Assembly: GCA_020353515.1 (NCBI GenBank)
Contig: CP070695.1
Coordinates: 3,823,908-3,887,907 of the forward strand
Length of the DNA: 64,000 nt
Origin: Candidatus Heimdallarchaeota archaeon
Lineage (GTDB): Archaea; Asgardarchaeota; Heimdallarchaeia; Hodarchaeales; Hodarchaeaceae
Direction of reading: 5' to 3'
Position 1 is the first letter of the stretch; every line of letters starts with the position of its first letter. The notes under the pieces are model-generated. The model was not told the DNA's origin and did not search any database. It was given only the letters and a program-made list of their open reading frames with translations. Of this stretch, positions 16,834-46,507 are shown piece by piece. Made by a program: the position numbers and the translations under genes.

Positions 16834-17700
16834 CTAGAGGTAATTTTTGACTGCTTCAGGGATTTCCCAGGGCGTCTCGGTGACTTTAGCACCGACTGCC
16901 TCTAAAGCGTCAATTTTTCCTTGAGCAGTCCCGACATTTCCAGAGATGATGGCGCCAGCGTGACCCATACGTTTTCCTTCAGGTGCACTCTTACCTGCTA
17001 TGTAAGCGACAACAGGTTTGTCAACCTTTTGATCTTTGATATACTGTGCCACTTTCTCTTCGTCATCACCACCGATTTCCCCAATTAATACGATTACTCG
17101 TGTCCCAAGATCCTTAACATAATAATCAAAAGCTTCAGTTAATGTTTTTCCTCGAACTGGATCTCCACCAATTCCAATATATGCGGAAACTCCAACATCG
17201 GCATTACCAAGAGCTTTTGTGATTTCATATGACAAAGTACCACTTTTTGCGATAACAGCTACATCTCCAAAATGAGCCATATCACCAGGCATGATACCTA
17301 ATTTAATTTTATCTGGGATTAACATTCCTGGAGTATTCGGGCCAATTAGGTTTAATTTTCTTGTCTTCGCAATCTCCACAAGACGAACCATATCAAAAAC
17401 AGGGACTCCCTCAGTAATGATACATGTCATATTGACTCCTGCATCTAGACTTTCCATAACAGCGCCATAGGTGAAACGAGCTGGAACAAAAATGATGCTT
17501 GTATCCACTTCCTGTTCGTCGACTGCTTCTTGGACAGTATTGTACACAGGAACTCCAAGTACTTCTTGCCCACCCTTTTTAGGAGTTACTCCTGCAACAA
17601 CGTTGGTCCCATATTCAAGCATCAATTGGGAATGGAACCTTCCTTGATTACCAGTAATGCCTTGAACAACAACTTTCGAATCTTCACTAATGTACATCAT
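16834..17700 (-). CDS. sucD: Succinyl-CoA synthetase alpha subunit
   Basis: [41 protein letters not shown] (phospho-His). Confidence 0.95.
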
Positions 17701-17709
17701 ATCACCTTC

Positions 17710-18831
17710 TTATGTCATAACCTCTTTAAGCTTAGCAACGGCATCCATCATATCTTGATAGGCATTAACCCCAGCATTATTGAGTATGGCGATACCTTCA
17801 GCCTCTCGTGTTCCAGTTAATCGAATTACCATAGGTGGAGCATCTGGGAACTCTTCCATGGTCTGTAAGATAGCCTCTGCCACAACATCACACCGTGTAA
17901 TGCCACCATATATGTTAATTAAGACAGCTCTTGGATTCATCGTATAGATAAGTTTAAGGGCTTCATATACACGTTCCTTGCTGGCTCCTCCACCAACATC
18001 TAGGAAATTCATTCCTGCCAAACCATGTTGAGCTAGAACGTCAAGTAATGCCATCGTTAGCCCTGCTCCATTTGCTAAAATCCCAATTTCGCCGTCGAGT
18101 TCGACAAAAGAAAATCCCACTCTTTGGGCTGTTTTTTCTAACTCCGTAAGCTTATGTTTTCGCAATTCCACTATTAGCTCTTGACGAAACGCAGCGTTGT
18201 CATCTAGAGTCATTTTTCCATCAACAGCGACCACTCCTGAAGGAGTGAGTACCAAGGGATTGATTTCAACCAGCTGGGCTTCTCTCTCGATTGTAATTTG
18301 CCATAATTTCAGGAAAAGGTCTGTGGCGGAATCAAGAAATGCACCTGAAAAACCTAATCTTTCAGCAACACTTTTAGCTACTTCTTTGCCTAATCCTTTA
18401 GCTATAGATATATTTTCTTTGATTATTGCCTCTGGGCGAGTAGCAGCAACCTCCTCAATGTCAATTCCCCCTTCTGCACTCGCAATAAGGACAAAACGCC
18501 GCCCAGATGAATCTAGTGCAATGGAACAATAATATTCATGTTTAATATCAGCCAAGCCTTCTATAAGGATCGCTTCGACTCCATATTCACCAACTTTCCT
18601 GCTGAAAAACTCTTCACACATAGCAAGAGCTTCATCTCTTGTTTGAGCAATTTTGATGAGTCCCCTCTTCTTTCGGCTTCCAACAGCTATTTGACTTTTT
18701 ACTATGGCAGGAAAGGCAAATTGATCGATTTTTTCCTTAATATTCTCCCCTTTTGTGATTACAAGACGATCAGCAAGGGGTATATCAAACTCATTAAAAA
18801 TTTCTTTACTTTCATATTCGAGAAGACGAAT
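17710..18831 (-). CDS. sucC: Succinyl-CoA synthetase beta subunit (probable ATT start)
   Basis: RLLEYESKEIF, EGGIDIEE, EINPL, NGAGL, NFLDVGGG, GGITRCD; GGAGGT lies 7 nt upstream of ATT at 18831. Confidence 0.92.
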   Translation of the reverse strand: MRLLEYESKEIFNEFDIPLADRLVITKGENIKEKIDQFAFPAIVKSQIAVGSRKKRGLIKIAQTRDEALAMCEEFFSRKVGEYGVEAILIEGLADIKHEYYCSIALDSSGRRFVLIASAEGGIDIEEVAATRPEAIIKENISIAKGLGKEVAKSVAERLGFSGAFLDSATDLFLKLWQITIEREAQLVEINPLVLTPSGVVAVDGKMTLDDNAAFRQELIVELRKHKLTELEKTAQRVGFSFVELDGEIGILANGAGLTMALLDVLAQHGLAGMNFLDVGGGASKERVYEALKLIYTMNPRAVLINIYGGITRCDVVAEAILQTMEEFPDAPPMVIRLTGTREAEGIAILNNAGVNAYQDMMDAVAKLKEVMT

Positions 18832-18918
18832 TGTGTAAACCTCCAAATAAATTGTAATTTAAAAATAAAAGGGTTGATAGGGAATTTTTCGCACTCTAAT
18901 TTCCTATTTTGTGCTTAA

Positions 18919-19524
18919 TTAAAAGGTAATACCTAAAAATTCACCTATTTTACCTAATTTTCCTTGAGCTTTTAGAGCTACATCTTTAAACAGACTCTCA
19001 CCGTTAGAATCGATTCCTACGATCAAAGGTCCGAATTTATCTACTTCTAACACCCAAAGACATTCCGGAGTACCTAAATCTAACCAATGAACCTCTTTAA
19101 CACGTTTTATCCCTTTTGCAGCAACTACTGCGGCACCACCAACGAAGGCGGTATATATTGCTTTATATTCCTTCATAGCTTTCGCTGTTCTATCTCCCAT
19201 GCCACCCTTACCAATAACAACATTAACATTAAATGTTTTAATGAATTCATCTTCAAAAAGATCCATACGTGTTGAGGTTGTAGGTCCTGCGGCAACAATT
19301 TCCCATTCATCCCCTACTTGTCTAACTACTGGTCCACAATGATAAACAGCTAATCCCTCGAAATCAATAGGCATTTTTTCACCTTTTCCTGCAAGATGCA
19401 ATGCTCTCTCATGAGCTTCATCTCTAGCAGTGAAAATTGTTCCCGATACGTATATCACATCGCCTATCTTAACTTTTTGTACATCTTCTTTTGAAATTGG
19501 AGTTGTAAAATGAAATTCCGCCAT
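18919..19524 (-). CDS. Fe-S fumarate hydratase (class I), beta subunit
   Basis: TARDEAH, YHCGPV, GPTTSTRM, IGKGGM. Confidence 0.92.
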   Translation of the reverse strand: MAEFHFTTPISKEDVQKVKIGDVIYVSGTIFTARDEAHERALHLAGKGEKMPIDFEGLAVYHCGPVVRQVGDEWEIVAAGPTTSTRMDLFEDEFIKTFNVNVVIGKGGMGDRTAKAMKEYKAIYTAFVGGAAVVAAKGIKRVKEVHWLDLGTPECLWVLEVDKFGPLIVGIDSNGESLFKDVALKAQGKLGKIGEFLGITF

Positions 19525-19526
19525 AT

Positions 19527-20423
19527 TTATTCCTCCTTATGTGTGAGAAACTCAACTCGTTTGTCAGGATAAATACGAGCTGTTGCTCTTCTTGCAGCCC
19601 AGCACTGAATAGCTACTGCAGCAGGTAATGAGGCTGGATGACGATGAGCATATTCGATTTTTACGTCTAAAGCTGTAGAGAAATCTCCACCTAATCCCAT
19701 AGATCCAATGCCTGTCATATTTATTGCTTTTAGTAGATCCTCTTCAAGTTTAGCTATCTCTGGATCAGAATGTCTTTCTCCAAGTGGGCGTAGTAATTGT
19801 TTTTTCCCGAGTTTTAGTGCAATGTCTGCACCACCACCAATACCAACACCCACGACCACAGGTGGACAAGGTTGGCCCCCTGCATTCATAATGGTGTCAA
19901 TAACGAATTTTTTTACCCCATTAATACCTTGGCCTGGTTTAAGCATTCCCAAGGCACACATATTCTCTGATCCACCACCCTTGGGAAAAGCAGTAATTTC
20001 CAAGTAATCTGCTCCAGGAATGAAATCATAATTTATGAATGGAATATGATTTCCCGTATTATCTCCTGAATTACCGCCAACAATAGGATTAACAGCGTTT
20101 GGTCTTAAAGGAACCTCCTTGGTTGCTCGAGCTGAAGCTTTTCTAAGCATTCCTTCAATTCCAGCAACTTTGGGAAAATTCTCACCAATATTTACATAAT
20201 AGATATGGATCCCTGTATCTTGACACATTGGGGTAGATGTCTCATCTGCAATGGTAAAGTTATCCACAATTGTTTTTAACGCAGCTTTACTTGTTGGTTG
20301 TGTTTCCTGTTTATACATGGTTTTTAATCCTTCGGAAACATCATTAGGTAGCTGTGTCGCAGCAAACCTGAGTAATTTTACAGCTGTATCTTCAATTATT
20401 GTGTTATCAAACGTTTCTGCCAT
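19527..20423 (-). CDS. Fe-S fumarate hydratase (class I), alpha subunit
   Basis: PMCQDTG, PLRPNAV, KGGGSEN, PCPP, HPASLP, IQCWAAR; start moved to ATG 20423. Confidence 0.92.
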   Translation of the reverse strand: MAETFDNTIIEDTAVKLLRFAATQLPNDVSEGLKTMYKQETQPTSKAALKTIVDNFTIADETSTPMCQDTGIHIYYVNIGENFPKVAGIEGMLRKASARATKEVPLRPNAVNPIVGGNSGDNTGNHIPFINYDFIPGADYLEITAFPKGGGSENMCALGMLKPGQGINGVKKFVIDTIMNAGGQPCPPVVVGVGIGGGADIALKLGKKQLLRPLGERHSDPEIAKLEEDLLKAINMTGIGSMGLGGDFSTALDVKIEYAHRHPASLPAAVAIQCWAARRATARIYPDKRVEFLTHKEE

Positions 20424-20553
20424 ACTTATCACAATTCTCAAGTAATTAGTATATGAAAAACTGATAAAATGATTTTTTTTGTCATAATAAAAATTCTATC
20501 ACTTATAACTTATGAATACAATGTAGCCTTTAGAATCAACTAATTTTAATTTG

Positions 20554-20596
20554 AAATAAAAGGGAGAGTGGGATGATGGCAACCAATTTTGCCATC
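20554..20596 (-). terminator. Putative terminator after sdhB
   Basis: Perfect 8-bp stem GATGGCAA/TTGCCATC, then CCCTTTTATTT on the minus strand. Confidence 0.55.
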
Positions 20597-20615
20597 CTTG
20601 AAGCTAGGAACTAGG

Positions 20616-21347
20616 CTAACGTGACCAAAATTTAAGTGCCTGAATCGCTGCTTGCCGTTTCAAAGCCTGAATAGCCTCTGTCGGATTAAGCTCCTTTGGA
20701 CAAGCTTCCACACAATTAAAGGCGGTATGACAACGGAAAACACCATCTTCAGCAGAGACACGTTTAACACGATCTTTAGTGTTTTCATCTCTAGTATCCT
20801 TTGCAAAACGGAATGCTTTTAAAAGTGCTCCAGGGCCTAAATAATTCTTGTCTGTCCATACTGATACGCATGAACTATGGCAACAGCCGCATAGAATGCA
20901 CTTAGTCGCTTCTTCGATAATTTTGAAGTCTTCGGGACTTTGAATAAGCTCAGTTTCTGGATCTTTGCTATGATCGCGCATTAAGAAAGGATCGATAGCA
21001 AGCAGTTTCTCATAAAACGGATCCATATCAACTACCAAGTCTTTAATCACAGGGAAGAAGGGGATGGGTTCTAGTTTAATCTCATCTTTCTTAAGTTGAA
21101 GAACTAAGGTCTCGCATGCTAATTGATACTTTTTATTGACTAGAACGGCACAGGAGCCACACACACCAGCCCGACAGTTATATCTCATGGCTATCGAGCC
21201 ATCTTGTTTAGCAATTAGTTCTTGTATTGCGATTAAAACAGTTGTCCCTTTGTCACAGTCTAATTCAAAAGTATCCCAATAAGGTTCAATATCCTTTTTT
21301 GGATTGAAGCGTTTGATCTTGAAAATTATTTTTTTAGTTTCACTCAT
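20616..21347 (-). CDS. sdhB: Succinate dehydrogenase/fumarate reductase Fe-S subunit
   Basis: CRAGVCGSC [2Fe-2S], CILCGCC [4Fe-4S], CHTAFNCVEACP [3Fe-4S]; GAGGTGA before ATG 21347. Confidence 0.95.
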   Translation of the reverse strand: MSETKKIIFKIKRFNPKKDIEPYWDTFELDCDKGTTVLIAIQELIAKQDGSIAMRYNCRAGVCGSCAVLVNKKYQLACETLVLQLKKDEIKLEPIPFFPVIKDLVVDMDPFYEKLLAIDPFLMRDHSKDPETELIQSPEDFKIIEEATKCILCGCCHSSCVSVWTDKNYLGPGALLKAFRFAKDTRDENTKDRVKRVSAEDGVFRCHTAFNCVEACPKELNPTEAIQALKRQAAIQALKFWSR

Positions 21348-21357
21348 TGTTTTCACC

Positions 21358-23079
21358 TCAGTACTTTCGTTCCTCCGGTTGCCACTTCGTAATAATGACA
21401 TCTAGATAGCTCAGTTTGGCTTCACCATCCACATAATTTACCAACGTGTGCTTCAGGAAGTTATCATCGTCTCTTCCCATGTTATCTAGTCTCCAGTGGC
21501 TACCACGGCATTCCTTTCGCTCAAGAGCACCTAAACAAATCGCTTCGGAAAGTTCCAACATTCCCTCGAGAGCCAAGACCCACTCTAACTCCCTATTGTA
21601 CAATCTGTCCTTGGATTTAAGGTAAACACCTTCTTTGAATCGTTTCTTAAGTTCCCTGATCTTATTGAGCGCTTCCGCTAAAGGAGCTTCTTCTCGATAA
21701 ACAAACACCTTCAACTTCATTGTATCACGCATTTCTTGCATGATCTGGAATGGATCGTTCTTACCTTCACCACTGAACCAGAAATCATGTTTTTCTTGTT
21801 CCTTAACGAATTCTTCGAAGATTGCATACTTTGCATCAGGAGATGGAGACACTCCTTCTACAAATTTTGCTGCCTCTAAACCAGATACTTTCCCGAAAAC
21901 AGCACAACCTAATAATGAATTACCACCCAGACGATTTGCACCATGCACTGAAATGCATGCGCCTTCACCGCAGGCATAGAAACCTTCCACTTCTTTACTT
22001 GCACAGTTCCCATCAACATGAATACCTCCCATTGCGTAATGAAAACCTGGTTGAACTGGGATAGGATCTTTAATCATGTCCTGGCCACTGAACCGTAAAG
22101 CTAGCTCTCTGATTTGGGGAAGACGTTCTAGGATCTGTTCAGCTGGAAGATGTGTTAAGTCAAGATGAACATATCCATTCTCTTTTGTCCCATACCCTCT
22201 GCCTTCAAGTACTTCTTGGTAAATTGACCTCGATACAATATCTCTCGGAGCAAGCTCCATCTTTTCTGGAGCATATTTTTCCATGAAACGCTCACCTTTG
22301 TTATTTCGTAAGTAACCACCTTCTCCTCGTGCTGCTTCTGAAATTAGAACGTTATTCCCATATAAAGTGGTTGGGTGAAACTGAATGAACTCCATATCTT
22401 TCAAAGCAACGCCTCCCCAATATGCGACAGCCATACCAAAACCTGTACAGTTTAAGGCATTTGATGTAGCCCCATAGATCTGCCCAGCTCCCCCAATGGC
22501 AAATATTGTTGCATCACACTCCCACATCTCAAGTTCACCACTTTTGAAATTGTATACGATAAGTCCTTTCACTTTTTGGTCTCTTACTACGAGTCGAACA
22601 ACAAGACGATCTTCGTAAACAGGTACACCTAATTTTACTGATCTTTCCCAGGCAACATGGAGAATTGAATGCCCAGTACGATCTGCTGCAAAGCAGGTAC
22701 GTGGATATCCTGCACCACCAAAAGGCCTTTGACCAATCCTACCATCTTCAAATCTTGAAAAAGGGCAGCCCCAGTGTTCTAACTCATAAATAGTTTCCTT
22801 GGCTAGTTCAATCATCTTGATTACTGCTGGTTGGTCAGCTAAATAATCAGAACCTTTTACAGTGTCAAAAGCATGCCTTTCAACCGAATCATCTTTAGAC
22901 TCAGGATGATTTCCGAGGGGAGCATTAATTCCACCTTGAGCTGCAACAGAGTGACTTCTTACAGGCTGACAAATTGAAATGACAGCTACATCTGCCCCAT
23001 TTTCTCTAGCGGCTACTGCTGCACGCATACCAGCTAAGCCAGATCCTACAACTAAGATACTATGTCTCTTTATTTGCAT
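21358..23079 (-). CDS. sdhA: Succinate dehydrogenase/fumarate reductase flavoprotein
   Basis: [16 protein letters not shown] (covalent FAD His), [30 protein letters not shown]; GGAGGT before ATG 23079. Confidence 0.95.
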
Positions 23080-23083
23080 GACT

Positions 23084-23596
23084 CTAACCTCCAAGGGTTC
23101 CTCCTATTTCGACAATTCCAGGAAGAATAGCTATTAGGAATAAGCCTAAAGCCCATGTAATAACTCCAAGAACTAGAAATATCCAAAATATCATCTTTTG
23201 ATGACGGATTCCTATACCGAGGTCAAATAAAACCACTCTTACTCCATTAGCACCATGATATATTCCTAAAGCCATTACTCCAGCATCAATGAAGAATCCA
23301 ATAGACAACATGTGATTTAACAATTCAACTCCAGTGTCAAAGAGATTTTGATTCATTGCATGAACTACTGTATTATATAATTCTCCCGCTTGAAATCCTA
23401 GGAACGGATCGAGTAACATCAAACCGATGATTGACATATGAATAAAAACGTAGATTAGAAGGCATAATCCAGTTATCCTCTGGAAAAGCCATGCATACAT
23501 ACCCATTCCACGAGAAAATGGATTGAACCAAGAGAGGAAATTAGATGCTTTACTGCTTGTTTCAATTTGTGAATCTTCAACTGTGACTTTTGTCAT
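23084..23596 (-). CDS. sdhC: Succinate dehydrogenase cytochrome b subunit
   Basis: WLFQRITG...FIH; [13 protein letters not shown]; 3 TM. Confidence 0.85.
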
Positions 23597-23606
23597 TTAC
23601 TTCACC

Positions 23607-24032
23607 TTATGCAACCATCACCGTATAATTTAGGAAGAACGCATAAACTACCAATAAAAAGCCAATAAGTAGGAGTACTATTGCGAGTAACCTTTTACTC
23701 ACTCTTCCAGGGGCTAAATCAAGTGTGACCGTTCTAAATCCGTTTAACATGTGAAAAACAACTGTTAAAACGAATAATACCGATATCCAGAAGTAAAAAG
23801 GAAAATTAATCATCTTCCATCGAACAGCTTGGAATGATGCAATACCATATGTTTCGACTATATCTAGTGGAAGATGAGCACTTAAATAGTGGTTTACCAG
23901 CATATGAAATAGGATCAGGAAAAATAACATTACTCCTGTTATTCGCTGAAGAACCCACCAAAGAGCACTCTTCTTACTATGTTTTGGCAAAAATTTTGCA
24001 AATTTGCTTTCAGAAAAAAGTTCAGTTCCCAT
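23607..24032 (-). CDS. sdhD: Succinate dehydrogenase membrane anchor subunit
   Basis: WVLQRITG...LFH; FHMLNGFR; 3 TM. Confidence 0.85.
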   Translation of the reverse strand: MGTELFSESKFAKFLPKHSKKSALWWVLQRITGVMLFFLILFHMLVNHYLSAHLPLDIVETYGIASFQAVRWKMINFPFYFWISVLFVLTVVFHMLNGFRTVTLDLAPGRVSKRLLAIVLLLIGFLLVVYAFFLNYTVMVA

Positions 24033-27643: not shown

Positions 27644-27646
27644 AAA

Positions 27647-29485: not shown

Positions 29486-29486
29486 G

Positions 29487-30771: not shown

Positions 30772-30855
30772 AATGCTTAATTTTCCATTTCTTTCCTTTT
30801 TTCTTTGTTGTCACATCAATATTTTTTTTTAAATAAAGAGGGAGATTGGAAGGAA

Positions 30856-32775
30856 TTATATATAACTTAATTTTCCACCGGCAAGGAGTATTTTGCGATC
30901 ACGCTCTGAAAGATCATATGAAGTTTCTATGTCAAATCTTTGGGTAACATCTCGGATGATAATGGTTTGATTTTCTTCTAAGGCTTTACGCACTCCTTTA
31001 ATCTCTAAAATATCATTTTCTTTAATTTTGTCATAATCCGCTGTGTTTGCGAAAGATAAAGGAAGAATTCCGAAGTTAATTAAGTTGTCCCGATGAATAC
31101 GGGCAAAGGACTTCGTAAGGACGGTCTTTATTCCTAGATACATTGGAGCAAGTGCTGCATGTTCCCTGCTTGAACCTTGACCGTAATTCTCACCGCCAAT
31201 TATGATTCCCCCGCCTTCCTCTTTACTTTCAAGAGCTCGCTCGGGGAATGTTGGATCGACCTGCTCGAACACATGCTTACTAATTTCAGGAAGATTAGAC
31301 CTTAGAGGTAGAATCTTTGCTCCTGCAGGCATGATATGATCCGTAGTGACGTTATCTTCTGTTTTAATGAGCACTTTGAATTGAAAATCGTCAGGAAGCG
31401 CTTGGAATTCTGGTAATGGGGCAATATTGGGGCCTCGGATTATCTCGACCTCTTCAGGTTTGTCAGATGGTTTAAGAATCATTGAGTCATCGATTTCAAT
31501 TGATTTGGGAATTTCAATTTTTGGAAAGTCTCCTAATTTTCGGGGATCTGTGAACTCTCCAAAAACAGCGGCAGCCACAGCAACTTCTGGACTGACCAAA
31601 TATGCATTTGCACTTTTTGTTCCACTTCTACCATAAAAATTCCTGTTGAAAGTACGGGCAATTGTTGCATCTGTCTTAGGAGCAAAACCCATGCCAATGC
31701 ATGGACCACAAGCAGTCTCAAGAATCCGAGCTCCTGCGGTAATCATATCAGCCAAACTACCATCTTTTGATAATTGCATTAACACTTGACGTGATCCAGG
31801 AGAAATACCTAAAACTGTGTCTGGATGGATTTTCCGTCCTTTTAGAAGAGCTGCAGCAGTTAACATGTCTTTTAATGAACTATTAGTGCAAGATCCGATT
31901 GCTACTTGGTCTACCTTCATTCCTTCAACTTCAGATAGAGGAATAACGTCACCTGGAGAATGGGGTTTAGCAACAAGGGGTTCCAGTTCAGAAAGATTGA
32001 TCTCTATTATCTCATCAAAATCATCATCGCTTCCAGCAGGAATTTCCATCCATTGATCTTCCCTTTCTTGCCATTTAAGAAACTCACGCGTGATTTCATC
32101 AGAGGGGAAAATTGATGTTGTTGCTCCAGTTTCAGCCCCCATGTTTGTAATAGTAGCTCGCTCGGGAACTGATAGTGTTTTCACTCCTGAACCAAAGTAT
32201 TCTAGGATTTTACCAACACCACCTTTTACTGATATCCTCCTGAGAACTTCTAAGATTACATCTTTGGCAGTAACATAATCTGGTAAAGATCCAGTTAGTT
32301 TGACTCCTACCATCTTCGGTGTTTTGAGATAAAATGGACCCGCACCCATTGCTACAGCAACATCAAGACCACCAGCACCGATTGCAATTGCACCCATTCC
32401 ACCAGCTGTTGGAGTATGCGAATCAGAACCAATCATTGTCTTTCCTGGTCTCGCAAAACGCTCGAGAAAAACTTGATGGCAGATACCATTACCAGGTCTA
32501 GAAAACATAATGCCATATTTTGCTGCGACTGATTGTAGATACCGATGGTCATCAGGGTTTTTAAAATCTGTTTGTAACGTATTATGATCTACAATTGACA
32601 CAGATAATTCTGTCTTGACCTTATCAAGACCCATTGCTTCAAATTGAAGGTATGCCATCGTTCCAGTGGCATCTTGAGTCAGAGTATGATCAATACGAAT
32701 ACCAATTTCTTCTCCGATCTCAAATTTTCCCTCAACAAGATGATCTTCTAATATTTTCTTTGCTATGGATACCAT
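30856..32775 (-). CDS. Aconitate hydratase (short, single-chain ~640 aa type)
   Basis: TQDATG, DHN, GSDSHT, GSCTN, ACGPCIG, NRNF, TTDHI, GSSREHAA. Confidence 0.9.
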   Translation of the reverse strand: MVSIAKKILEDHLVEGKFEIGEEIGIRIDHTLTQDATGTMAYLQFEAMGLDKVKTELSVSIVDHNTLQTDFKNPDDHRYLQSVAAKYGIMFSRPGNGICHQVFLERFARPGKTMIGSDSHTPTAGGMGAIAIGAGGLDVAVAMGAGPFYLKTPKMVGVKLTGSLPDYVTAKDVILEVLRRISVKGGVGKILEYFGSGVKTLSVPERATITNMGAETGATTSIFPSDEITREFLKWQEREDQWMEIPAGSDDDFDEIIEINLSELEPLVAKPHSPGDVIPLSEVEGMKVDQVAIGSCTNSSLKDMLTAAALLKGRKIHPDTVLGISPGSRQVLMQLSKDGSLADMITAGARILETACGPCIGMGFAPKTDATIARTFNRNFYGRSGTKSANAYLVSPEVAVAAAVFGEFTDPRKLGDFPKIEIPKSIEIDDSMILKPSDKPEEVEIIRGPNIAPLPEFQALPDDFQFKVLIKTEDNVTTDHIMPAGAKILPLRSNLPEISKHVFEQVDPTFPERALESKEEGGGIIIGGENYGQGSSREHAALAPMYLGIKTVLTKSFARIHRDNLINFGILPLSFANTADYDKIKENDILEIKGVRKALEENQTIIIRDVTQRFDIETSYDLSERDRKILLAGGKLSYI

Positions 32776-32927: not shown

Positions 32928-36047
<3,120 letters not shown>

Positions 36048-36196
36048 TCATCAACTTTTCTCGAATATCTCATTCCCCTTTTAAAGGTTTGAATTATTAT
36101 AACTTGATATATCTCTAGTATCTACCTTTTTCTGCTAAACGTTTAAAAAAAAAATCTTGAAAAATGTCCACAATCAAGAAAGGTGGATTAAATACA

Positions 36197-36664
36197 ATGA
36201 GCAAACAGGAAAAAGTGGAATTCTACAAAGAACAAATCAACATAGAGAACACAATAGTTGAAAAGGCTGAAAAAGCAGTCCAAGGGATGGAAAATATTCT
36301 GATTCGGGAACTAATTCTTGGGATCGCTTTGGATTCAAAAAAGCATGCAGGCATGTTAAATGCATTAGTGAGTATATATACCAAACCAACTCCCTCTGTT
36401 GCCGAAGAATTCGGAGAAGATCTGAAAAAAGCTATTGCAGAGCACATTGAGCTAGAACAGCAAGCAATTGATGCTTATCAGGAACAATTAGACAACACCG
36501 ATAATGAAAGTGAAAAACTCATCATCAAGGCCATCCTCAATGATGAAAAAAAGCACCACACGCTCCTCCAAACAATCCAAAAAATGATTGTTGAAAAATT
36601 AACCCTATCAGAAAATGAGCTTTGGGAGATGGTAGAAGAAAGCTTTTTTGATTTCGGGGAATAG
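36197..36664 (+). CDS. Ferritin/rubrerythrin-like diiron four-helix protein
   Basis: Duplicated E...DSKKH and E...DEKKH motifs; ATG at 36197. Confidence 0.75.
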   Translation: MSKQEKVEFYKEQINIENTIVEKAEKAVQGMENILIRELILGIALDSKKHAGMLNALVSIYTKPTPSVAEEFGEDLKKAIAEHIELEQQAIDAYQEQLDNTDNESEKLIIKAILNDEKKHHTLLQTIQKMIVEKLTLSENELWEMVEESFFDFGE

Positions 36665-36720: not shown

Positions 36721-36790
36721 GTACAGTTATCTTAGGAATAGAAGAAAAGAAAACTCCCAATCCTTTTAGTTAAATTTGAAAAATCTGTAT

Positions 36791-39181
36791 TTAGGCAGCA
36801 GCCTTTGCTTCTTTGTGAGCAACCTCATGATTTTTACGAGCAATTTTACTCATCTCTGTGACGACATCAGCAAATTTCTTGCCCTCAGCAGCTGACATCC
36901 ATTCAATGATAAAGCGCTCATCAGCGATACCTTGTTTCTTCATCCAGCGACGAATCTTTCTCTCACGCTTCAATGCCCAATCGTTTCCAGAGATATAATG
37001 ACAGTCTTGAGGATGACACCCAGTCAGCATTACAGCACCTGCACCTCGTTCAAAAGCCCGCTTGATGAAGTCAACATCGACACGTCCAGAACACATAGTC
37101 CTAACTATACGGGAATTGGTTGGATACTGAATTCGGCTTGTTCCAGCAAGATCAGCGCCTCCATACGAGCACCAATTGCAAGCGAAGATCATCACCTTCT
37201 CTGAAGCGTTATCTCTTAGGGCAATGTCTACTTGTCGAAGGATCATCGCGTCAGTAAAGTTAGTCATGGTAATGCAGTCTTTTGGACAATCTGCGGCACA
37301 GGTTCCGCATCCTTTACACAAGATGGGGTTGACATGAGCTGGAGTCTTTTTCTTCGTATCCACACTAATAGCATTGTATGGGCAACGTTTTGCACATGTT
37401 CCACAGGAATTGCACAGTTCGGTATCTACATAGGCAAACAGGGGTTCAACACTAAACTCTCCTTTAGTAAGTAATCGTGTAACTCTTCCTGCTGAAGCAC
37501 TAGCCTGAGTAACACACTCACGAATGTCTTTTGGAGCTTCTGCCCCGCCAGCAATGAATACACCATCAGTTGGAGTATCAACGGGTTTTAATTTGGGGTG
37601 AGCTTCAATATAGAACCCTTTAGGATCTCTTGAGACAGGAAATGGTATGGGATATGCAGAACCTTCCGCCCCAACAGAAAGTACAACTAGATCGAATTCT
37701 TTAGTAAGAAGTTTTCCTGACCGAGTATCTTCTACAGATACAAAGAGATTATTATCTCCAGGATTCTCTTCTATCAAACTTGGACGTCCACGGATATAAT
37801 GAACTCCTTCCTCTCTAGAACGAGTGTAAAGCTCCTCAAAACCTTTACCAAAGGCTCTAATGTCCATATAGAAAACAGAAATATCTACTTCAGGCCAGTG
37901 TTCTTTGATGAGTAGACTATCTTTTATAACTTCCATGCAGCAGAAATTACTACAGTATGGGTTGAATCGAACGTCTCGTGATCCGACACAATTGATAAAT
38001 GCGACACTTTTAGGAGGTTTAAGGTCACTGGGCCTAACAAGTTCTCCCGAGGTAGGACCAGCAGCATTAATCAAACGTTCAAATTCGAAAGTTGTTACAA
38101 CATTAGGATACTGTCCCCATCCGTATTCAGGGATCTTAGAGGCATCAAAAATCTCAAAACCCGTTGCTACAATTATTGAACCAACTTTATAGGTATATGT
38201 CTTTTCAGTATCCTCGTAATTAATAGCTTCTTTATCACATGTGCCAGCACACTTTCCACATGCTAAAGGGGAAAGTCCAAGGCAGTTATCGGTATCTATC
38301 AAGTAAGCTGCTGGGACAGACTGTGGATATGGAATATATATTGCTTTTCTCCAACCTAGATTACCAGAATACTCGTCAATGACGTTTACAGGACAGATAT
38401 CTATGCAATCATTACATGCTGTACAAAGATCCTCGTCAACATAGCGTGCTTGCTTCTTAATTGTAACCTCAAAATTCCCCACATATCCTTCAATATTTGT
38501 TACTTCTGCACTTGCAATTAAATCGATATTCTGGTGATTACCCACATCAGCCATTTTTGGACCAAGGATACAAATAGAACAATCCATTGTAGGAAATGTT
38601 TTGTCAATTAAAGCCATTTTTCCGCCAATCGTCGGACTTTTCTCAACCATGACGACTTGATAATCATCAGCTAAGTCTAACGCTGCCTGAATCCCAGCTA
38701 CTCCTCCACCGATGATCAATACCCTTTTCTCAACAGGAACTACGATTTCGTCAACAGCCTCGAGTAACTCGGCCTTGGCTATTGCCATTTCAGTTAATTC
38801 TTTTGCTTTTAAGGTCGCTTCTTCTTTCTCATGAAGATGTACCCAAGAGCAATGTTCTCTGATATTAGCAACCTCGACTACTTCTGGGTTCATTCCAACA
38901 CGTTTTAACAGGTTTTTCCATGTTGGAAGATGTAATCTTGGGGAACAGGCTGATACAACTATTTTTTCTATTCCTTGTTCTTTAATTGCTTCCTCAATTT
39001 CAACTTGTCCTGGATCTGAACAAGTATAGGTGTTTACCTGAACGAGTTTTACTCCTGGTAACTGCTCTGCTTCTTTAGCTATTTCATCGATATCAACGGT
39101 ACCACCAATATTCTTCCCACATTTACAGAGAAAAACACCAATTTTAGATTCTTCAGTTGGTTGATCTACACTTTCAGTCAT
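36791..39181 (-). CDS. hdrA: Heterodisulfide reductase subunit A fused to MvhD (HdrA-MvhD)
   Basis: CKCG, ACSP, GGGVAG, KTFPTMDC, CVGSRD...YCSNFCC, ferredoxin CxxCxxC motifs; C-terminal MvhD ACNWCSY...MCSGRV...GCHPQDCHY. Confidence 0.95.
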   Translation of the reverse strand: MTESVDQPTEESKIGVFLCKCGKNIGGTVDIDEIAKEAEQLPGVKLVQVNTYTCSDPGQVEIEEAIKEQGIEKIVVSACSPRLHLPTWKNLLKRVGMNPEVVEVANIREHCSWVHLHEKEEATLKAKELTEMAIAKAELLEAVDEIVVPVEKRVLIIGGGVAGIQAALDLADDYQVVMVEKSPTIGGKMALIDKTFPTMDCSICILGPKMADVGNHQNIDLIASAEVTNIEGYVGNFEVTIKKQARYVDEDLCTACNDCIDICPVNVIDEYSGNLGWRKAIYIPYPQSVPAAYLIDTDNCLGLSPLACGKCAGTCDKEAINYEDTEKTYTYKVGSIIVATGFEIFDASKIPEYGWGQYPNVVTTFEFERLINAAGPTSGELVRPSDLKPPKSVAFINCVGSRDVRFNPYCSNFCCMEVIKDSLLIKEHWPEVDISVFYMDIRAFGKGFEELYTRSREEGVHYIRGRPSLIEENPGDNNLFVSVEDTRSGKLLTKEFDLVVLSVGAEGSAYPIPFPVSRDPKGFYIEAHPKLKPVDTPTDGVFIAGGAEAPKDIRECVTQASASAGRVTRLLTKGEFSVEPLFAYVDTELCNSCGTCAKRCPYNAISVDTKKKTPAHVNPILCKGCGTCAADCPKDCITMTNFTDAMILRQVDIALRDNASEKVMIFACNWCSYGGADLAGTSRIQYPTNSRIVRTMCSGRVDVDFIKRAFERGAGAVMLTGCHPQDCHYISGNDWALKRERKIRRWMKKQGIADERFIIEWMSAAEGKKFADVVTEMSKIARKNHEVAHKEAKAAA

Positions 39182-39199
39182 TGTTATCACTTAATATCA

Positions 39200-40069
39200 T
39201 TATTTCTTCTTTTGAGCCACATCTCGAAGATGTTGAACCTTCTGACTAAAACCCTCCCTTGGCGCATCAACAAACTCCCCGCAGATTATCTTCCCCTGTT
39301 TGAAGTCAAATGTAGCTTCATGAGGTGGCCAATCAGTTTTTATCCTCACTTGATTTTTTATCCAGTCTAACATCTGGACAGCGTCACCGAGCTTGTTCTT
39401 GCGACCGTATTGGGTGAAACATGGAGCAAGCACTTCGATGAAGCTAAATCCTGGATTATCAAATGATTTTAAAATGCTGTTTCTTAATCTGATAGTGTCA
39501 TATCCAGGCCAACGGGCAACATAACTTGCCCCTGAAGCTGCTGCTAATGAAACTAAATTGAATGGAGGTTCAATATTCCCATAAGGAGTGGTTGTTGTGA
39601 AGTCACCTATCTGAGTGGTCGGAGCACATTGACCTCCAGTCATCCCATAGACATTGTTATTTATACACAGAACGGTTATTTCTACATTTCTTCTACAGGC
39701 ATGGATGAAATGATTCCCACCAATGGCAAAAAGATCTCCGTCTCCTGAAAGAACAACTACTTCAAGATTAGGATTTGCCAGTTTCAACCCTGTAGCAAAG
39801 GGAATAGCTCTCCCATGCGTTGTGTGAAAAGCAGGAGAATTAAAACATCCACTAGATCGGCCAGTGCAACCAATACCTGAAACCACTGCATAATCTTTAG
39901 ATGTGAGACCTCTTTCTGCAAAACAGCTAGTTATAGATGTTATTGCTGATCCGATCAGACAACCAGGACAAAAGATAAATCGATGTAAGTTTAACCTTTC
40001 ATGTAAGGGATGATCCTCAGGGATCTCGTCAGAACTTTTTGGAGCTGGAATTTTATCTGTTGTTGTCAT
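39200..40069 (-). CDS. korB: 2-oxoacid:ferredoxin oxidoreductase beta (TPP-binding) subunit
   Basis: FCPGC, SGIGC, HTTHGR, GDGD, YGMTGGQ. Confidence 0.9.
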   Translation of the reverse strand: MTTTDKIPAPKSSDEIPEDHPLHERLNLHRFIFCPGCLIGSAITSITSCFAERGLTSKDYAVVSGIGCTGRSSGCFNSPAFHTTHGRAIPFATGLKLANPNLEVVVLSGDGDLFAIGGNHFIHACRRNVEITVLCINNNVYGMTGGQCAPTTQIGDFTTTTPYGNIEPPFNLVSLAAASGASYVARWPGYDTIRLRNSILKSFDNPGFSFIEVLAPCFTQYGRKNKLGDAVQMLDWIKNQVRIKTDWPPHEATFDFKQGKIICGEFVDAPREGFSQKVQHLRDVAQKKK

Positions 40070-40071
40070 AT

Positions 40072-41226
40072 TTAAACCTCCTTTAGCAACTCCTCATAAA
40101 TAAACCGTGGACTGAAGGGAATGGTTGTTGGTACTAAACTACCAGTTACTTCAAATCCAAGATGTCGGAATCGTTCAACTTCTCGGATCACTTGACCATA
40201 ATTCATTTCGCTAACAATCACTTTTTTCAAGCCAAGCTGACCTAATTTTTCCATGAGTTTTTCGGGAAAAGGCCACAACGTTCTTAATCTCACTAAACCG
40301 ACCTTATGGCCTTCTTTGCGTGCACGTTCAACTGCCTCGGGAACGCCTCTTGAATTAATACCATAAGATAAAATAACCGTCTCGGCATCATCTAAATGTT
40401 GTTCCTCCCATGGGACGTATTCATTAATCGCAACGCTCGCGTTTCTAATCTTATCACAAAGACGTGTAATAAGCTTTATCGCTCTCTCTGGAGTCATATC
40501 TGGACTTCCAGTGTCATCATGAGTCAACCCTGTTACATAAAAGTTATATTCTGTTCCAGCTGTAGCCATACCTGGAACCAAGTCCTCATCGAGAACTTCA
40601 AATGGTTTGTATTCCTCTGGAGGAACTTGGGGAGGTTTTCGGTTGATAACTTCAAAATTTGAGTGATACCTTACAGGTTCCATCATTTGACCTACTATGC
40701 CATCTGATGCAATAATAACTGGTGTTCGATACTTCTCAGCTAAATTAAAACCATATATAGAGAAATCGTAACATTCTTGAACTGTACCTGGAGCAAGAAC
40801 GATCATCTCATAATCCCCATGTGAAAGGTATCGTGTTTGCATAACATCAGATTGTGAGGCTTTAGTAGGTTGTCCAGTGCTAGGTCCCCCTCGCATCACA
40901 GTGATAACTACCATAGGTGCTTCCAACATGAATCCTAAACCAATAGTTTCCGCCATTAAGGACAATCCAGGACCAGATGTCGCAGTCATTGCTTTAACAC
41001 CAGCGTAGGAAGCTCCTACTACCGAAACAATCGAAGCTAGTTCATCTTCCATTTGGATGAAGGTACCACCAACTTGAGGAAGACGTCTTGACATATAATG
41101 GGCAATTTCTGAGGATGGAGTAATGGGATACCCTCCAAAGTAGCGGCAGCCAACCGCAATAGCTCCTTCAGCACTCGCATAATTTCCAGTAGTAAGTACT
41201 AGCTTTCCATTATTATCACTACTCAT
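40072..41226 (-). CDS. korA: 2-oxoacid:ferredoxin oxidoreductase alpha subunit
   Basis: GYPITPSS, QMEDE, TATSGPG, RGGPSTG, EMNYGQ. Confidence 0.9.
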   Translation of the reverse strand: MSSDNNGKLVLTTGNYASAEGAIAVGCRYFGGYPITPSSEIAHYMSRRLPQVGGTFIQMEDELASIVSVVGASYAGVKAMTATSGPGLSLMAETIGLGFMLEAPMVVITVMRGGPSTGQPTKASQSDVMQTRYLSHGDYEMIVLAPGTVQECYDFSIYGFNLAEKYRTPVIIASDGIVGQMMEPVRYHSNFEVINRKPPQVPPEEYKPFEVLDEDLVPGMATAGTEYNFYVTGLTHDDTGSPDMTPERAIKLITRLCDKIRNASVAINEYVPWEEQHLDDAETVILSYGINSRGVPEAVERARKEGHKVGLVRLRTLWPFPEKLMEKLGQLGLKKVIVSEMNYGQVIREVERFRHLGFEVTGSLVPTTIPFSPRFIYEELLKEV

Positions 41227-41507
41227 GAACTCTCCTCCTGTAGTAATTGTATCTCAGTTACAAATATTGAGACAGAGGGGCAGATCCGCTCACACTGTTG
41301 ACACCCTACACATTCATCTGGCTTAACAGCAATCGCAGGGTGTAACATTCTTGAGTTGTATGCCTCCATATCGATCTCCAATACGTCTGTTGGACAGAAC
41401 TCCACACATAATTCACATCCATCACACTGTTCAGGTAGTATCGTCACGACATACTCCTTATCAGTAGTTGGAGGAGGTAATATGGGCTTCCGTTGGCTTC
41501 TTAACAT
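41223..41507 (-). CDS. korD: 2-oxoacid:ferredoxin oxidoreductase delta subunit (2x[4Fe-4S] ferredoxin)
   Basis: CDGCELCVEFCP and CVGCQQCERICP. Confidence 0.9.
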   Translation of the reverse strand: MLRSQRKPILPPPTTDKEYVVTILPEQCDGCELCVEFCPTDVLEIDMEAYNSRMLHPAIAVKPDECVGCQQCERICPSVSIFVTEIQLLQEESS

Positions 41508-42076
41508 TTTCTTTCCTCTTTGTGAAGTTTAGACTTCCAATCAATATTTTTCTTAGTTGTGCTTCAATTTAATGACTAGGCTTTTAACTTTGTTTTCTAT
41601 TTCGCTGATTCGTTTTCACTTTATAGTTACTTCTTAATCATAAGATCTGATAACTAAAATCACTAATTAGCGAACCTTGTGTAATTTTTCAATTGTTAAC
41701 TATTAAAGATGAGATATTTTCTAATAATAACAACAAAAGATTTATCTGACTTGTAAAGATTCTTAGTCAATCTTTTTAAGCAGATGCTAGCAATAAGACT
41801 GATTACTTAATCTAGTATCTTGACGATCTATTCAAGGATTCTTTGATTCAATAGGTAGAGTAATATCTCCAACTATTCCGATACATAATAGCTGATGATT
41901 ATTTATAATAATTATTCTACGCAGGTCAAAATTAAACAATTGTTATGTGTGAAAATAATACCATTCTATCTAATGGTAGATCCTGCTTCAAAATATAATA
42001 TAGATTGTAGCAAGTAAAAGTAATAATAATGAAATTATTCTTGATTCAAAAATTGAAAAAAAAAAAGGGAGTATCT

Positions 42077-42658
42077 CTATTTTAGGATTGGATATTTCTC
42101 TACGAAAGAAAGTTTTGACCATTTTTCGCCTAAGCCAAGGTAATTCCCAACTGGCACTATAATGAATAATAATAGTACTAGAATATAGATAATGTGTTCA
42201 TCGATTAAAGGATTAAATACCATAGTACCTTGAGCTGGAGCAATTATCCACTCCGAGAGGTATACTGAAGATAGAAAGATTATTGTAGAAATACTTGATA
42301 GTCTTACAAGTACACCAGACATGAGTCCAACACCAGCGAACAGCAACATTCCCATATAAGCAATATCTACTAGTTGATATGCATTCCCTAAGGTGTCGGA
42401 GAAGAGGAAGGCGAATGGGCTATTCTGGTTTACACCATAAAACTGCAAAAATCCTTGTGTAGGAGATGCACCAGCAAGCCACGAGTTTTCAGGTGCTGTA
42501 GCAAACCTTAAACCGAACATTTTATCTAAGAATGGCCAAAGGAACACAAAACCCATCGCTATTCTTATTATACCAAGAGTTTTTTGATCAAGATTATATT
42601 TTTCGAACTTAGAATTCAATTCTTTTCCCTCTATGATTAGTTTGATTCTAATTAACAA
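42077..42658 (-). CDS. DoxX-family membrane protein (start probably ~35 nt downstream of 42658)
   Basis: RIAMGFVFLWPFLDK, GASPTQGFL, NPLIDEHIIY, YLGLG. Confidence 0.8.
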   Translation of the reverse strand: MLIRIKLIIEGKELNSKFEKYNLDQKTLGIIRIAMGFVFLWPFLDKMFGLRFATAPENSWLAGASPTQGFLQFYGVNQNSPFAFLFSDTLGNAYQLVDIAYMGMLLFAGVGLMSGVLVRLSSISTIIFLSSVYLSEWIIAPAQGTMVFNPLIDEHIIYILVLLLFIIVPVGNYLGLGEKWSKLSFVEKYPILK

Positions 42659-44157: not shown

Positions 44158-44392
44158 TGATACTCAGATATTACTTGAGAAAATTCCAATTATAAGGAAT
44201 TCTAGAAAAAATTCAAAATCTTGGTTATTAAAAATAATAATGGGTTTGGATGTGGGTTTTTATGTTCGAAAAAAGAACAAACATACAAAATAAATAATCT
44301 TGAACCAATATAGAATGTTCAGAAATCAACAGTTTTGGACTATAAACAAAAATTTGATTCAATATCTGTAATAAAAGATAGAGTTGAAAGTT

Positions 44393-44896
44393 ATGGGAAA
44401 AACAGAAGAGAATTTAATGGCAGCATTTGCTGGTGAAAGTCAGGCAAATCGAAAATATCTTGCATATGCAAAAAAGGCAGAAAAGGATGGATTTCCTCAA
44501 GTAGGACGTCTTTTTCGTGCAGTTGCACATGCAGAAACCGTGCATGCACATAGTCATTTACATCTTTATGGTGGAATTAAAACGACTCTTGAAAATATTA
44601 AGGCAGCAATTGAAGGAGAACATTATGAATTTACTAAAATGTACCCTGAATTCTTGGAAGACGCCAAAGAGGAAACACAGAAGGCTGCAGAGCGAACTTT
44701 TGATTTCGCTAATCAAGTAGAGAAAATTCACCATGAATTATATTCACGAGCACTACAAGCGATTGAGGATGGAAAAGATCTCCCAGAAAAGACGATGTAT
44801 GTGTGTGAAGTCTGTGGCTATACCGTTGAGGATGGAATCCCAGACAAATGCCCTATTTGCAACACCTCCCACGAAAGATTTGTTAAGATAGAATAA
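44393..44896 (+). CDS. rbr: Rubrerythrin
   Basis: AFAGESQANRKY, AETVHA, EKIH, C-terminal CEVCG...CPIC rubredoxin site. Confidence 0.95.
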   Translation: MGKTEENLMAAFAGESQANRKYLAYAKKAEKDGFPQVGRLFRAVAHAETVHAHSHLHLYGGIKTTLENIKAAIEGEHYEFTKMYPEFLEDAKEETQKAAERTFDFANQVEKIHHELYSRALQAIEDGKDLPEKTMYVCEVCGYTVEDGIPDKCPICNTSHERFVKIE

Positions 44897-44948
44897 GAAT
44901 TTTCTATCCACTTCTATTCAATTTTTCATGAGATTAGGTGATAATGGA

Positions 44949-45512
44949 TTGACATTTGAGAATTTGGTTAAGAGAAGAAGAGCATATAGATCATTAGAAC
45001 CGGTCAAAATTACACAAGATCTAATTGAAGAAACAGCACGAGTAGCTCAATTAGCTCCTTCGTGCTTCAACAAACAACCATGGAGATATGTATTTGTTTA
45101 TGATAAAACAACTCTCACTAAATTGCAAACTGAAGGTCTTTCGAAAGGAAATCAGTGGGCAAAAGCTGCTAGTATGATCATTGCAGTATTTTCAAGAGTC
45201 GACATGGATTGTGTAATTGGTGATCGCCAGTATTATCTGTTTGATTCTGGTATGGCAACAGCAATAATGATTTTACACTTAACTGATCAAGGTTTAGTTG
45301 CGCATCCAATTGCAGGATTTGATCCAGTTAAAGTAAAGGAACTTTTGGAAATTCCTAATGAGATGCATCTGATAACCTTAATAATCGTTGGGAAAAAATC
45401 CAATACAATTCCAGACTTCTTCAAAGACTATCAAAAGAAAAGTGAAGTAACACGTCCTGAACGAAAATCACTAAATGAATTCATCTATTTAAATAAATAT
45501 ATTGAAAAATAA
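44949..45512 (+). CDS. Nitroreductase family protein
   Basis: RRAYRS, APSCFNKQPW, GLVAHPIAGFD; likely TTG start after GGTGA. Confidence 0.9.
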   Translation: MTFENLVKRRRAYRSLEPVKITQDLIEETARVAQLAPSCFNKQPWRYVFVYDKTTLTKLQTEGLSKGNQWAKAASMIIAVFSRVDMDCVIGDRQYYLFDSGMATAIMILHLTDQGLVAHPIAGFDPVKVKELLEIPNEMHLITLIIVGKKSNTIPDFFKDYQKKSEVTRPERKSLNEFIYLNKYIEK

Positions 45513-45885
45513 TTTTAATCATTCTTTCTTACTAATAATCAACAATATCGAAGTATTTTTTGGGGGCTCTACACCAAGGACAAACCCAATCATCGGGGAG
45601 CTCTTCAAAAGGAATACCTTGGGCTTCCTCGTCATAGGTATATCCACACATGCGACATTCCCAGATTGCCATTTTTTTACGCCTTAATATAAATTAGAAA
45701 TACTGTGATTAAAATTTTCGGATTGAAAATTTAGTTTTGAAAAAATTATCTACCTACCATCATTCTCATATAAGATGGATAGATAACGAAATTCATATTG
45801 AAAAAAATATATTGCTAAGAATTAATATCTAATCGGAGAGTACTTTGAATTTAATTAGAGAGACTCTGATATATGTGATGAGTAA

Positions 45886-46434: not shown

Positions 46435-46507
46435 ATATTTTCCCAAAAATGCTTTGAAGTAATCCTAACAACATTAATAAGATTGTATTAATTGACGTGA
46501 GGAATAT

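Follow-up and report, generated by a model that had tools for sequence, protein, structure and literature searches.

Why should a gene for heterodisulfide reductase subunit A (HdrA) end an operon for a 2-oxoacid:ferredoxin oxidoreductase (OFOR), and how does that enzyme manage with no gamma subunit gene beside its other three? The question is raised by a stretch of 64,000 nucleotides (the window; contig CP070695.1, positions 3,823,908 to 3,887,907) from the genome of a Candidatus Heimdallarchaeota archaeon of the Hodarchaeales, the Asgard lineage nearest to eukaryotes. The original prediction, made from the letters alone, had read its korD-korA-korB-hdrA/mvhD operon as a directly coupled HdrA-OFOR module lacking both gamma and HdrBC. 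Our analysis points to an Oor/Kor-type enzyme whose gamma subunit would be supplied in trans and which would be wired to a dedicated, co-transcribed HdrA-MvhD, a reading that we regard as evenly poised between right and wrong.

A korDAB-hdrA/mvhD operon and its displaced gamma gene

The four genes are tightly packed on the minus strand (Table 1), with spacings of -4, 2 and 9-18 nt between the open reading frames (ORFs). The stop of korD and the start of korA overlap as ATGA and 2 nt separate korA from korB; read directly, these junctions bear out the claims that the delta, alpha and beta genes abut and that the four genes form one operon. Shine-Dalgarno-like GGAGG boxes lie upstream of both korA and korB, and the korB ATG is preceded by the Shine-Dalgarno-like AAAGGAGG. 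The predicted 18-nt step from korB to hdrA-mvhD holds for the alternative ATG at 39181; the GTG at 39190 leaves 9 nt. T-runs (TTTTT and TTTTCTTTTCTTC) follow 10-50 nt past the hdrA-mvhD TAA, and the T-rich stretch that holds them is probably an archaeal terminator marking the operon end. A scan for bacterial sigma-70 promoters and terminators gave fewer hits than shuffled sequence and was set aside as inapplicable to archaeal DNA, leaving the T-runs after hdrA as the sole signals used.

Each product carries the features expected of its subunit type. In KorD the motif CxxCxxCxxxCP occurs twice, at residues 28 and 66, matching the two [4Fe-4S] motifs of a delta subunit; its best NCBIfam match is OorD (8e-15, under the cut-off of that model). 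KorA shows the Pfam domains POR_N (1.5e-66) and PFOR_II of an Oor/Kor-type alpha subunit, scores above the cut-off of NCBIfam PRK08659 (475 bits against 411) and below that of OorA (370), and has 1YD7 and the 2-oxoglutarate synthase alpha subunit of 8YS5 as its best PDB matches. KorB matches TPP_enzyme_C (4e-33) and retains the thiamine pyrophosphate (TPP) motif GDG...NN and the cysteines (Cys34/37/68/217) of a beta subunit; its best matches are PRK09628, the beta subunit of 2-oxoglutarate ferredoxin oxidoreductase, in NCBIfam and 8YS5_C in the PDB.

Residues 13-662 of the fourth product align to residues 2-654 of the HdrA chain 5ODC_A (E 2.5e-221) and cover the full HdrA fold of an N-terminal domain, a flavin adenine dinucleotide (FAD) domain, and inserted and C-terminal ferredoxin domains. 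Every cluster-ligand cysteine and the FAD motif (GGGVAG at residue 161) are kept. Residues 664-780 align to MvhD/VhuD chains. In Pfam an FlpD/MvhD domain covers 666-782 (1.4e-45), beside Fer4 and FAD motifs; the fused MvhD portion spans 664-786 and retains Cys671/674/700/725/730 of a [2Fe-2S] adaptor. The HdrA2 model of NCBIfam, NF040770, matches residues 16-786 with 1074.3 bits, a narrow miss of its curated cut-off of 1100; because of this the 799-aa protein would not be filed as HdrA2, though it is predicted to work like a fused HdrA-MvhD.

No gene of the gamma family PF01558 is present in the operon, and the sole PF01558 domain of the window is part of another OFOR, a two-subunit enzyme (51953-53848). 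The whole genome (4.94 Mb, a single contig) holds six such domains: two fused in two-subunit OFORs, two in por/vor-type gamma-delta-alpha-beta sets, one in IorB and one in a solitary gene. This last, which carries the GRGGQG motif, lies 2.3 Mb from the kor operon. In what follows, G000 is the genome under study, other labels in G are compared genomes, L marks loci and f Asgard families. Loci labelled Loki-, Thor-, Odin- and Hermod- have the order gamma-korD-korA-korB-hdrA/mvhD, with gamma co-directional with korD and immediately before it; these same-strand gammas (L040-L076 and L086) are 59-66% identical to the solitary one. In other Hodarchaeales (L035-L037, L039) gamma is also upstream of korD, divergently oriented and 71-88% identical, and an orthologue adjoins korA in G013, G018, G020 and G022. 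Since its orthologues adjoin korD or korA in relatives, the solitary gene is assigned by orthology as the gamma, and so the predicted fourth subunit, of the korDAB enzyme. In relatives gamma takes the place of the AT-rich region upstream of korD, either co-directionally (L040-L076) or divergently (L035-L037, L039). The notion of an OFOR without gamma thus survives as a statement about gene position only.

A 193-aa ORF upstream of korD (42077-42658) was considered as a decayed gamma gene and rejected, its product being unrelated to gamma in sequence and resembling a hydrophobic membrane protein. The regions upstream of korD and of the relocated gamma share no 9-mer or longer, so no common promoter motif was found between them.

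The partners of HdrA present a similar picture. Domain searches found no bona fide HdrB or HdrC, no MvhA or MvhG and no NiFe hydrogenase in the operon or the window, and confirmed hypE (4373-5431) and hypC (5444-5710), as had been claimed. Searched genome-wide, the gamma (korC), hdrBC and mvhAG genes were all located. A stand-alone hdrC-hdrB pair converges with the relocated gamma (Table 1), and in G014 a block of the same make-up, hdrC-hdrB-orf136-DUF5320, faces gamma. At 1.5-kb flanks the gamma-hdrCB neighbourhood appeared unconserved; a wider view showed same-contig linkage in G014, G021, G001, G008 and G013. The congener G001 keeps hdrCB, a canonical-type hdrA-mvhD, gamma (pointing away from korDAB) and korDAB-hdrA/mvhD within 15 kb, from which it appears that a break between gamma and korD split the two halves in the present lineage. 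Moreover, hdrC-hdrB directly follows hdrA-mvhD at its 3' end in basal loci of the Asgard clade (L039, L065, L073), in families f6, f17 and f21 and in bacterial loci. That the module lacks HdrBC appears accordingly to be true of the locus only. A second HdrB-like gene (356999-357880) scores similarly to the stand-alone HdrB against the cluster-encoded copies.

Elsewhere (1.528-1.534 Mb) the genome holds a separate, complete canonical hdrBC-hdrA-mvhD-mvhG-mvhA set, and for this reason the kor-linked HdrA-MvhD is predicted to be an additional, Kor-dedicated paralogue. The genome also encodes a second HdrA-MvhD fusion, of 795 aa and 30% identity, with the gene for a NiFe hydrogenase large subunit after it (G000:C1:2978893-2983545, L111).

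Several other Hdr-related genes were observed. The sole CCG domain of the window lies in a plus-strand gene (10081-13047) encoding a 988-aa GlcD-like FAD-linked oxidase fused to an HdrD-like double CCG domain, a candidate lactate or glycolate dehydrogenase passing electrons to a disulfide-type site; near it are a LarA-like gene (24702-26165) and a D-2-hydroxyacid dehydrogenase gene (563-1543). A 1042-aa HdrL-like triple-HdrA protein is encoded with MvhD and several CCG proteins at 1.747-1.757 Mb. The stand-alone hdrCB block (L108, G000:C1:1566126-1571987) comprises a type III sulfide:quinone oxidoreductase (SQR)-like flavoprotein, an Lrp/AsnC regulator, hdrC, hdrB, a 136-aa ORF and DUF5320; the SQR-like neighbour may hint at a thiol or sulfur substrate of the stand-alone HdrCB. 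The relocated gamma, convergent with this block, comes after a second AsnC-type regulator. At a further locus (L107, G000:C1:4055379-4060066) a 4HBT thioesterase gene separates iorA from iorB, and a homologue of citrate lyase alpha (CitF) comes after them.

Conservation of the Kor-HdrA link

The nearest public loci, at 92-96% identity, come from Asgard metagenome-assembled genomes (MAGs) labelled Hodarchaeota or Heimdallarchaeota. We surveyed the gene neighbourhoods of 51 public loci encoding an HdrA-MvhD at least 70% identical to the one studied here, 46 of them with at least 400 nt of upstream sequence. In 45 of these 46 Asgard-type loci the gap from the end of korB to hdrA-mvhD downstream was at most 63 nt, with a mode of 25 nt; in the exception, L065, the distance was about 420 nt. 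Among more distant homologues (50-58% identity) korA was present in 18 of 29 loci, the remainder having mostly short flanks.

Outside the Asgard archaea the link was found in Bathyarchaeia, Thermoplasmata, Desulfobacterota, Acidobacteriota, Fibrobacterota and Eisenbacteria. The order is hdrA/mvhD then korDAB(G) in Bathyarchaeia; korDABG, an HdrL-like gene, mvhD, an FeS gene, hdrA/mvhD and hdrCB in Fibrobacterota, Eisenbacteria and Thermoplasmata; and korDABG, hdrA/mvhD, hdrCB in the Desulfobacterota type. The Asgard phylum was also sampled through 151 genomes and 20 families, each family represented by a single locus. The best KorA reached at least 50% identity in 14 of the representatives, and in 11 of these it stood beside HdrA, the arrangements numbering at least five. 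No link was seen in f13, f23 and f26, nor in f19, where the best KorA reaches 48%; paralogues at 41-45% identity were also unlinked to HdrA. Altogether the link spans about 12 Asgard families. The adjacency of OFOR and HdrA held up in the survey and is conserved far beyond chance inheritance.

A FastTree phylogeny of 61 HdrA-MvhD sequences placed all Asgard-type copies in one clade with 100% support, inside which the Hodarchaeales and Loki-type sequences form sister groups. Recent transfer between the two was considered as the source of their 77-79% HdrA-MvhD identity and judged unlikely, as the sister clades fit slow vertical evolution. The Asgard-type operon also turns up, at 72-77% identity, in three loci (L060, L065 and L070) from MAGs binned as Nanopelagicaceae, Desulfobacterales and Rhodobacteraceae. 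All three group within the Asgard clade and probably reflect mis-binning of Asgard contigs, not transfer. Six bacterial HdrA-MvhD homologues (L078, L085, L088, L090, L093, L100) have an in-frame TGA some 580-620 nt after the start of the match, exactly at the second cysteine of DCSIC (Cys207 in the protein studied here), and presumably encode a selenocysteine HdrA. Cysteine occupies that position in the copies checked from Asgard archaea, Bathyarchaeia and delta-proteobacteria.

Proposed electron flow between Kor and HdrA

How might the two enzymes work together? In the mechanism that we favour, KorD, KorA and KorB would be the delta, alpha and beta subunits of a four-subunit enzyme, most likely the 2-oxoglutarate enzyme of the tricarboxylic acid (TCA) island in which the operon lies, and gamma, the coenzyme A (CoA)-binding domain III, would come in trans from a gene that a rearrangement has moved. 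HdrA-MvhD would bind the OFOR, and electrons would pass directly between the clusters of KorD and KorB and the iron-sulfur chain of HdrA; we infer here both a physical coupling and a direction of flow. Kor would form the low-potential ("ferredoxin") arm of the bifurcating FAD and the HdrCB encoded beside the relocated gamma its high-potential disulfide arm, while a mid-potential donor or acceptor would dock at the MvhD domain: H2 via MvhAG, or another module. In the bacterial versions NAD(P)H could be the mid-potential partner, through the HdrL-like gene of the same cluster. Such a system would be reversible, making 2-oxoglutarate from succinyl-CoA and CO2 without free ferredoxin or, in the alternative direction, feeding the low-potential electrons of 2-oxoglutarate oxidation into confurcation.

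Two considerations set the arms. With a potential of about -500 mV, the 2-oxoglutarate/succinyl-CoA couple suits the ferredoxin arm of HdrA and not its mid-potential input, and we therefore favour Kor on the low-potential arm. The HdrL-like gene and separate MvhD that the bacterial clusters add would supply that mid-potential input. Both arrangements have counterparts in methanogen Hdr, whose low-potential arm is wired straight into a CO2-fixing enzyme and which takes exchangeable input modules at MvhD/VhuD (PMC13518236), and a complex passing electrons from Hdr directly to a 2-oxoglutarate oxidoreductase has already been proposed (PMC6315080). As to the substrate, Oor/2-oxoglutarate equivalog models are the best for all four subunits, yet the scores fall under their curated cut-offs; the TCA-island context makes 2-oxoglutarate the most likely candidate. 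The ATP-citrate lyase (ACL) and TCA genes next door also fit a link to reductive carboxylation.

Several observations weigh against this mechanism. The Hodarchaeales and Loki-type crown-group operons encode neither HdrBC nor a mid-potential donor. Orthology of the stand-alone HdrCB to the cluster-encoded pair is doubtful, because they are just 40-45% identical to the basal copies, as against 74-81% for HdrA. The assignment of 2-oxoglutarate as the substrate is weakened by a second, two-subunit OFOR in the same TCA island. Conserved adjacency indicates a functional link and is no proof of contact, and the HdrAL/POR cluster of Syntrophobacter fumaroxidans was not detected in proteomes (PMC5947623). 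Finally, MvhD is an input-module adaptor and Kor the sole other redox enzyme of the operon, so that Kor could equally dock at MvhD.

Of the rivals, the one that survives best, though we consider it unlikely, is that no physical complex exists and that the genes are co-transcribed on account of a shared ferredoxin pool, with HdrA-MvhD, HdrBC and a hydrogenase encoded elsewhere making or consuming reduced ferredoxin for a free-standing KorDABG. The gamma and hdrCB genes have moved megabases away without being lost, suggesting that tight stoichiometric co-translation is not essential, and in three or four Asgard families (L148, L154, L159, L161) this type of Kor has no HdrA beside it. Yet the adjacency survives at least five gene orders and crosses domains, a full canonical Hdr-Mvh set, complete with an HdrA and an MvhD of its own, is already encoded in the genome, and the cluster keeps no ferredoxin gene.

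Ranked after it, and improbable in our view, is the arrangement in which Kor is an electron-input module on MvhD, in the place of the Mvh hydrogenase or formate dehydrogenase (Fdh) of methanogens, and runs in the oxidative direction only. Oxidation of 2-oxoglutarate would then feed the HdrA flavin, and from there a disulfide (at HdrBC) and ferredoxin, making the whole a 2-oxoacid:heterodisulfide/ferredoxin oxidoreductase. MvhD, fused or separate, occurs in every version of the cluster and a hydrogenase in none; MvhD/VhuD is a known adaptor for exchangeable input modules (PMC13518236); and Loki-type lineages that live by fermentation, in which Kor would work in the oxidative direction, have the same operon. 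On established thermodynamics, however, a donor near -500 mV does not lie between the two acceptors, and bifurcation would waste most of the energy; run in reverse, the reaction could not drive carboxylation. The bacterial HdrL-like gene and second MvhD are a better fit to the input role, and the ACL/TCA island favours a reversible enzyme.

A gamma-less, CoA-independent OFOR in which HdrA-MvhD substitutes structurally for gamma, as the original prediction implied, is rejected: HdrA-MvhD does take gamma's place in the DABG order of Oor-type operons, but an intact orthologous gamma with its GRGGQG motif is in the genome, most relatives carry gamma and HdrA together in the cluster, and HdrA-MvhD has no similarity to PF01558 in Pfam searches.

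We return to Kor on the low-potential arm of a dedicated HdrA-MvhD. Extending this to a supercomplex of Kor with HdrA/MvhD, and in some versions HdrCB, in Asgard archaea including Hodarchaeales, that is an oxoglutarate synthase/oxidoreductase hard-wired to flavin-based bifurcation, is a more tentative step, which we think would probably fail. If it were true, the hardest redox step of the (reverse) TCA cycle could be driven, or its electrons harvested, without ferredoxin, in parallel to the methanogen Hdr-Fwd super-assembly but in central carbon metabolism. For reductive carboxylation OFORs require electrons near -500 mV, and the supply of these in non-phototrophic anaerobes is an open problem of the reverse TCA (rTCA) cycle. 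After methanogen Hdr-Fwd, a direct Hdr-to-Kor wire would be the second case of a bifurcating flavoprotein plugged into a CO2-fixing enzyme. The setting would be Asgard central metabolism, beside ACL genes discussed as ancestral to the eukaryotic enzyme. The breadth of the link over phyla and its several gene orders make it a good target for complexome or cryo-electron microscopy work on cultured Asgard strains.

Genomic setting and comparison with known systems

The features of the locus and the displaced genes are collected in Table 1.

Table 1 Features of the kor-hdrA locus, its surroundings and the displaced genes. Positions are those of the window unless marked "genome".
Feature	Position	Strand	Remarks
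korD, delta subunit	41223..41507	minus	94 aa, ferredoxin-like, 2 x [4Fe-4S]; Pfam Fer4 families
korA, alpha subunit	40072..41226	minus	384 aa; OFOR domains I and II, without domain III
korB, beta subunit	39200..40069	minus	289 aa; TPP and one [4Fe-4S] predicted
hdrA-mvhD fusion	36791..39190	minus	799 aa, intact; GTG at 39190, alternative ATG 39181
T-rich stretch, probable archaeal terminator	36735..36790	minus	3' of hdrA-mvhD stop
AT-rich 569-nt region, presumed promoter	41508..42076	minus	upstream of korD
Solitary gamma gene	genome 1570843-1571403	minus	186 aa, intact PF01558, best model OorC
Stand-alone hdrC and hdrB	genome 1568343-1569712		165 aa and 290 aa; convergent with relocated gamma, 1.1 kb off
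sucD, sucC, class I fumarase beta/alpha, sdhB, sdhA, sdhD, sdhC	16834..24032	minus	Pfam
aclB	26354-27643		Pfam; ATP-citrate lyase
aclA	27647-29485		Pfam; ATP-citrate lyase
icd	29572-30771		Pfam Iso_dh
Aconitase	30856-32775		Pfam Aconitase
GH2 beta-galactosidase	32928-36038	minus	1036 aa; between aconitase and the kor-hdrA operon
Ferritin/rubrerythrin-like gene	36164..36664	plus	166 aa; Pfam Rubrerythrin 7.5e-8; convergent with hdrA-mvhD

The genome-wide PF00890 and PF08442 matches fall within the sucD-sdhC run. The acl pair carries the Pfam domains Citrate_bind and ATP-citrate synthase ATP-grasp on the one hand and CoA_binding, Ligase_CoA and Citrate_synt on the other. The TCA island (16834-32775) holds a nearly complete gene set for the cycle; no malate dehydrogenase was identified there. 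Synteny of aconitase, icd and acl with the kor operon is confined to close Hodarchaeales. In close relatives the ferritin/rubrerythrin-like gene is held at the same position (78-87% identity), as is the GH2 gene, an odd insertion in a redox/TCA island yet kept there at 70-76% identity (L027-L032). Past the operon, at 50.9-57.1 kb of the window, lie a second aconitase and the two-subunit OFOR. An oxidative-stress and thiol-redox run on the plus strand (44384-50035: rubrerythrin, nitroreductase, an AhpC/peroxiredoxin fusion, a thioredoxin-reductase-like gene and a dimeric pyridine-nucleotide-disulfide oxidoreductase) sits just upstream of the O2-sensitive Kor-Hdr operon, and JAB/MPN deubiquitinase-like and ThiF/E1-like genes of an Asgard-type ubiquitin-like modifier system lie close to each other on the minus strand (59779-62508).

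The closest published parallel is the set of rTCA clusters of tubeworm symbionts and Thioflavicoccus mobilis, in which aclAB, korABCD and tfrAB are interspersed with flxABCD-hdrABC (Rubin-Blum et al. 2019, PMC6315080). Like them, the present locus has kor interleaved with hdr near aclAB and a rubrerythrin gene, with ACL, other TCA genes and rubrerythrin-like genes all within 15 kb of the operon. Those clusters are bacterial and encode an NADH-input FlxABCD, a separate HdrABC and a thiol:fumarate reductase, whereas the operon here is archaeal and has a single fused HdrA-MvhD gene directly after korB, with hdrCB and gamma displaced. No Flx-like genes are among the annotated genes of the window, to which the Flx search was confined, and in contrast to tfrAB the succinate dehydrogenase/fumarate reductase carries Sdh_cyt membrane anchors.

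With the methanogen assemblies MvhAGD-HdrABC and Hdr-Vhu/Fdh-Fwd(Fmd) (5ODC, 7BKB, 8RVU; PMC13518236) the protein shares a full-length HdrA with its cysteines, FAD motif and MvhD [2Fe-2S] site. The operon differs from them in having no hydrogenase, formate dehydrogenase or polyferredoxin; its partner is an OFOR, not formylmethanofuran dehydrogenase, and its host is a non-methanogen. The fused architecture is that of HdrA2 of the Methanosarcina acetivorans HdrA2B2C2 complex. HdrA2 reportedly uses F420H2 and ferredoxin with HdrB2C2 and has no OFOR link, and in anaerobic methanotrophic archaea clear gene clustering of HdrA2 is largely lacking.

An Hdr-like system tied genetically to an OFOR also occurs in S. 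fumaroxidans, whose HdrAL/POR cluster (Sfum_0012-0018) has been named in passing and went undetected in the proteome (Sedano-Nunez et al. 2018, PMC5947623). The bacterial loci L089-L097, with korDABG, an HdrL-like gene, mvhD, hdrA/mvhD and hdrCB, look to be of this type. The operon here lacks both the NAD(P)H-type HdrL and the selenocysteine HdrA of the S. fumaroxidans cluster. The Kor enzyme itself resembles Helicobacter pylori OorDABC and four-subunit Kor (8YS5) in its subunit types and D-A-B order, and the best family and PDB matches of all four subunits are Oor/Kor-type; it departs from OorDABC in equivalog scores that are all below the curated cut-offs, in a gamma outside the operon and in HdrA-MvhD in the fourth position.

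A literature search found no paper describing the Asgard korGDAB-hdrA/mvhD operon. ACL in Asgard archaea has been published (PMC11976288), and clustering of Kor with Hdr is known in print from the tubeworm symbionts and Syntrophobacter; what appears to be new here is the hdrCB-gamma block and the synteny of that block with the operon in G001.

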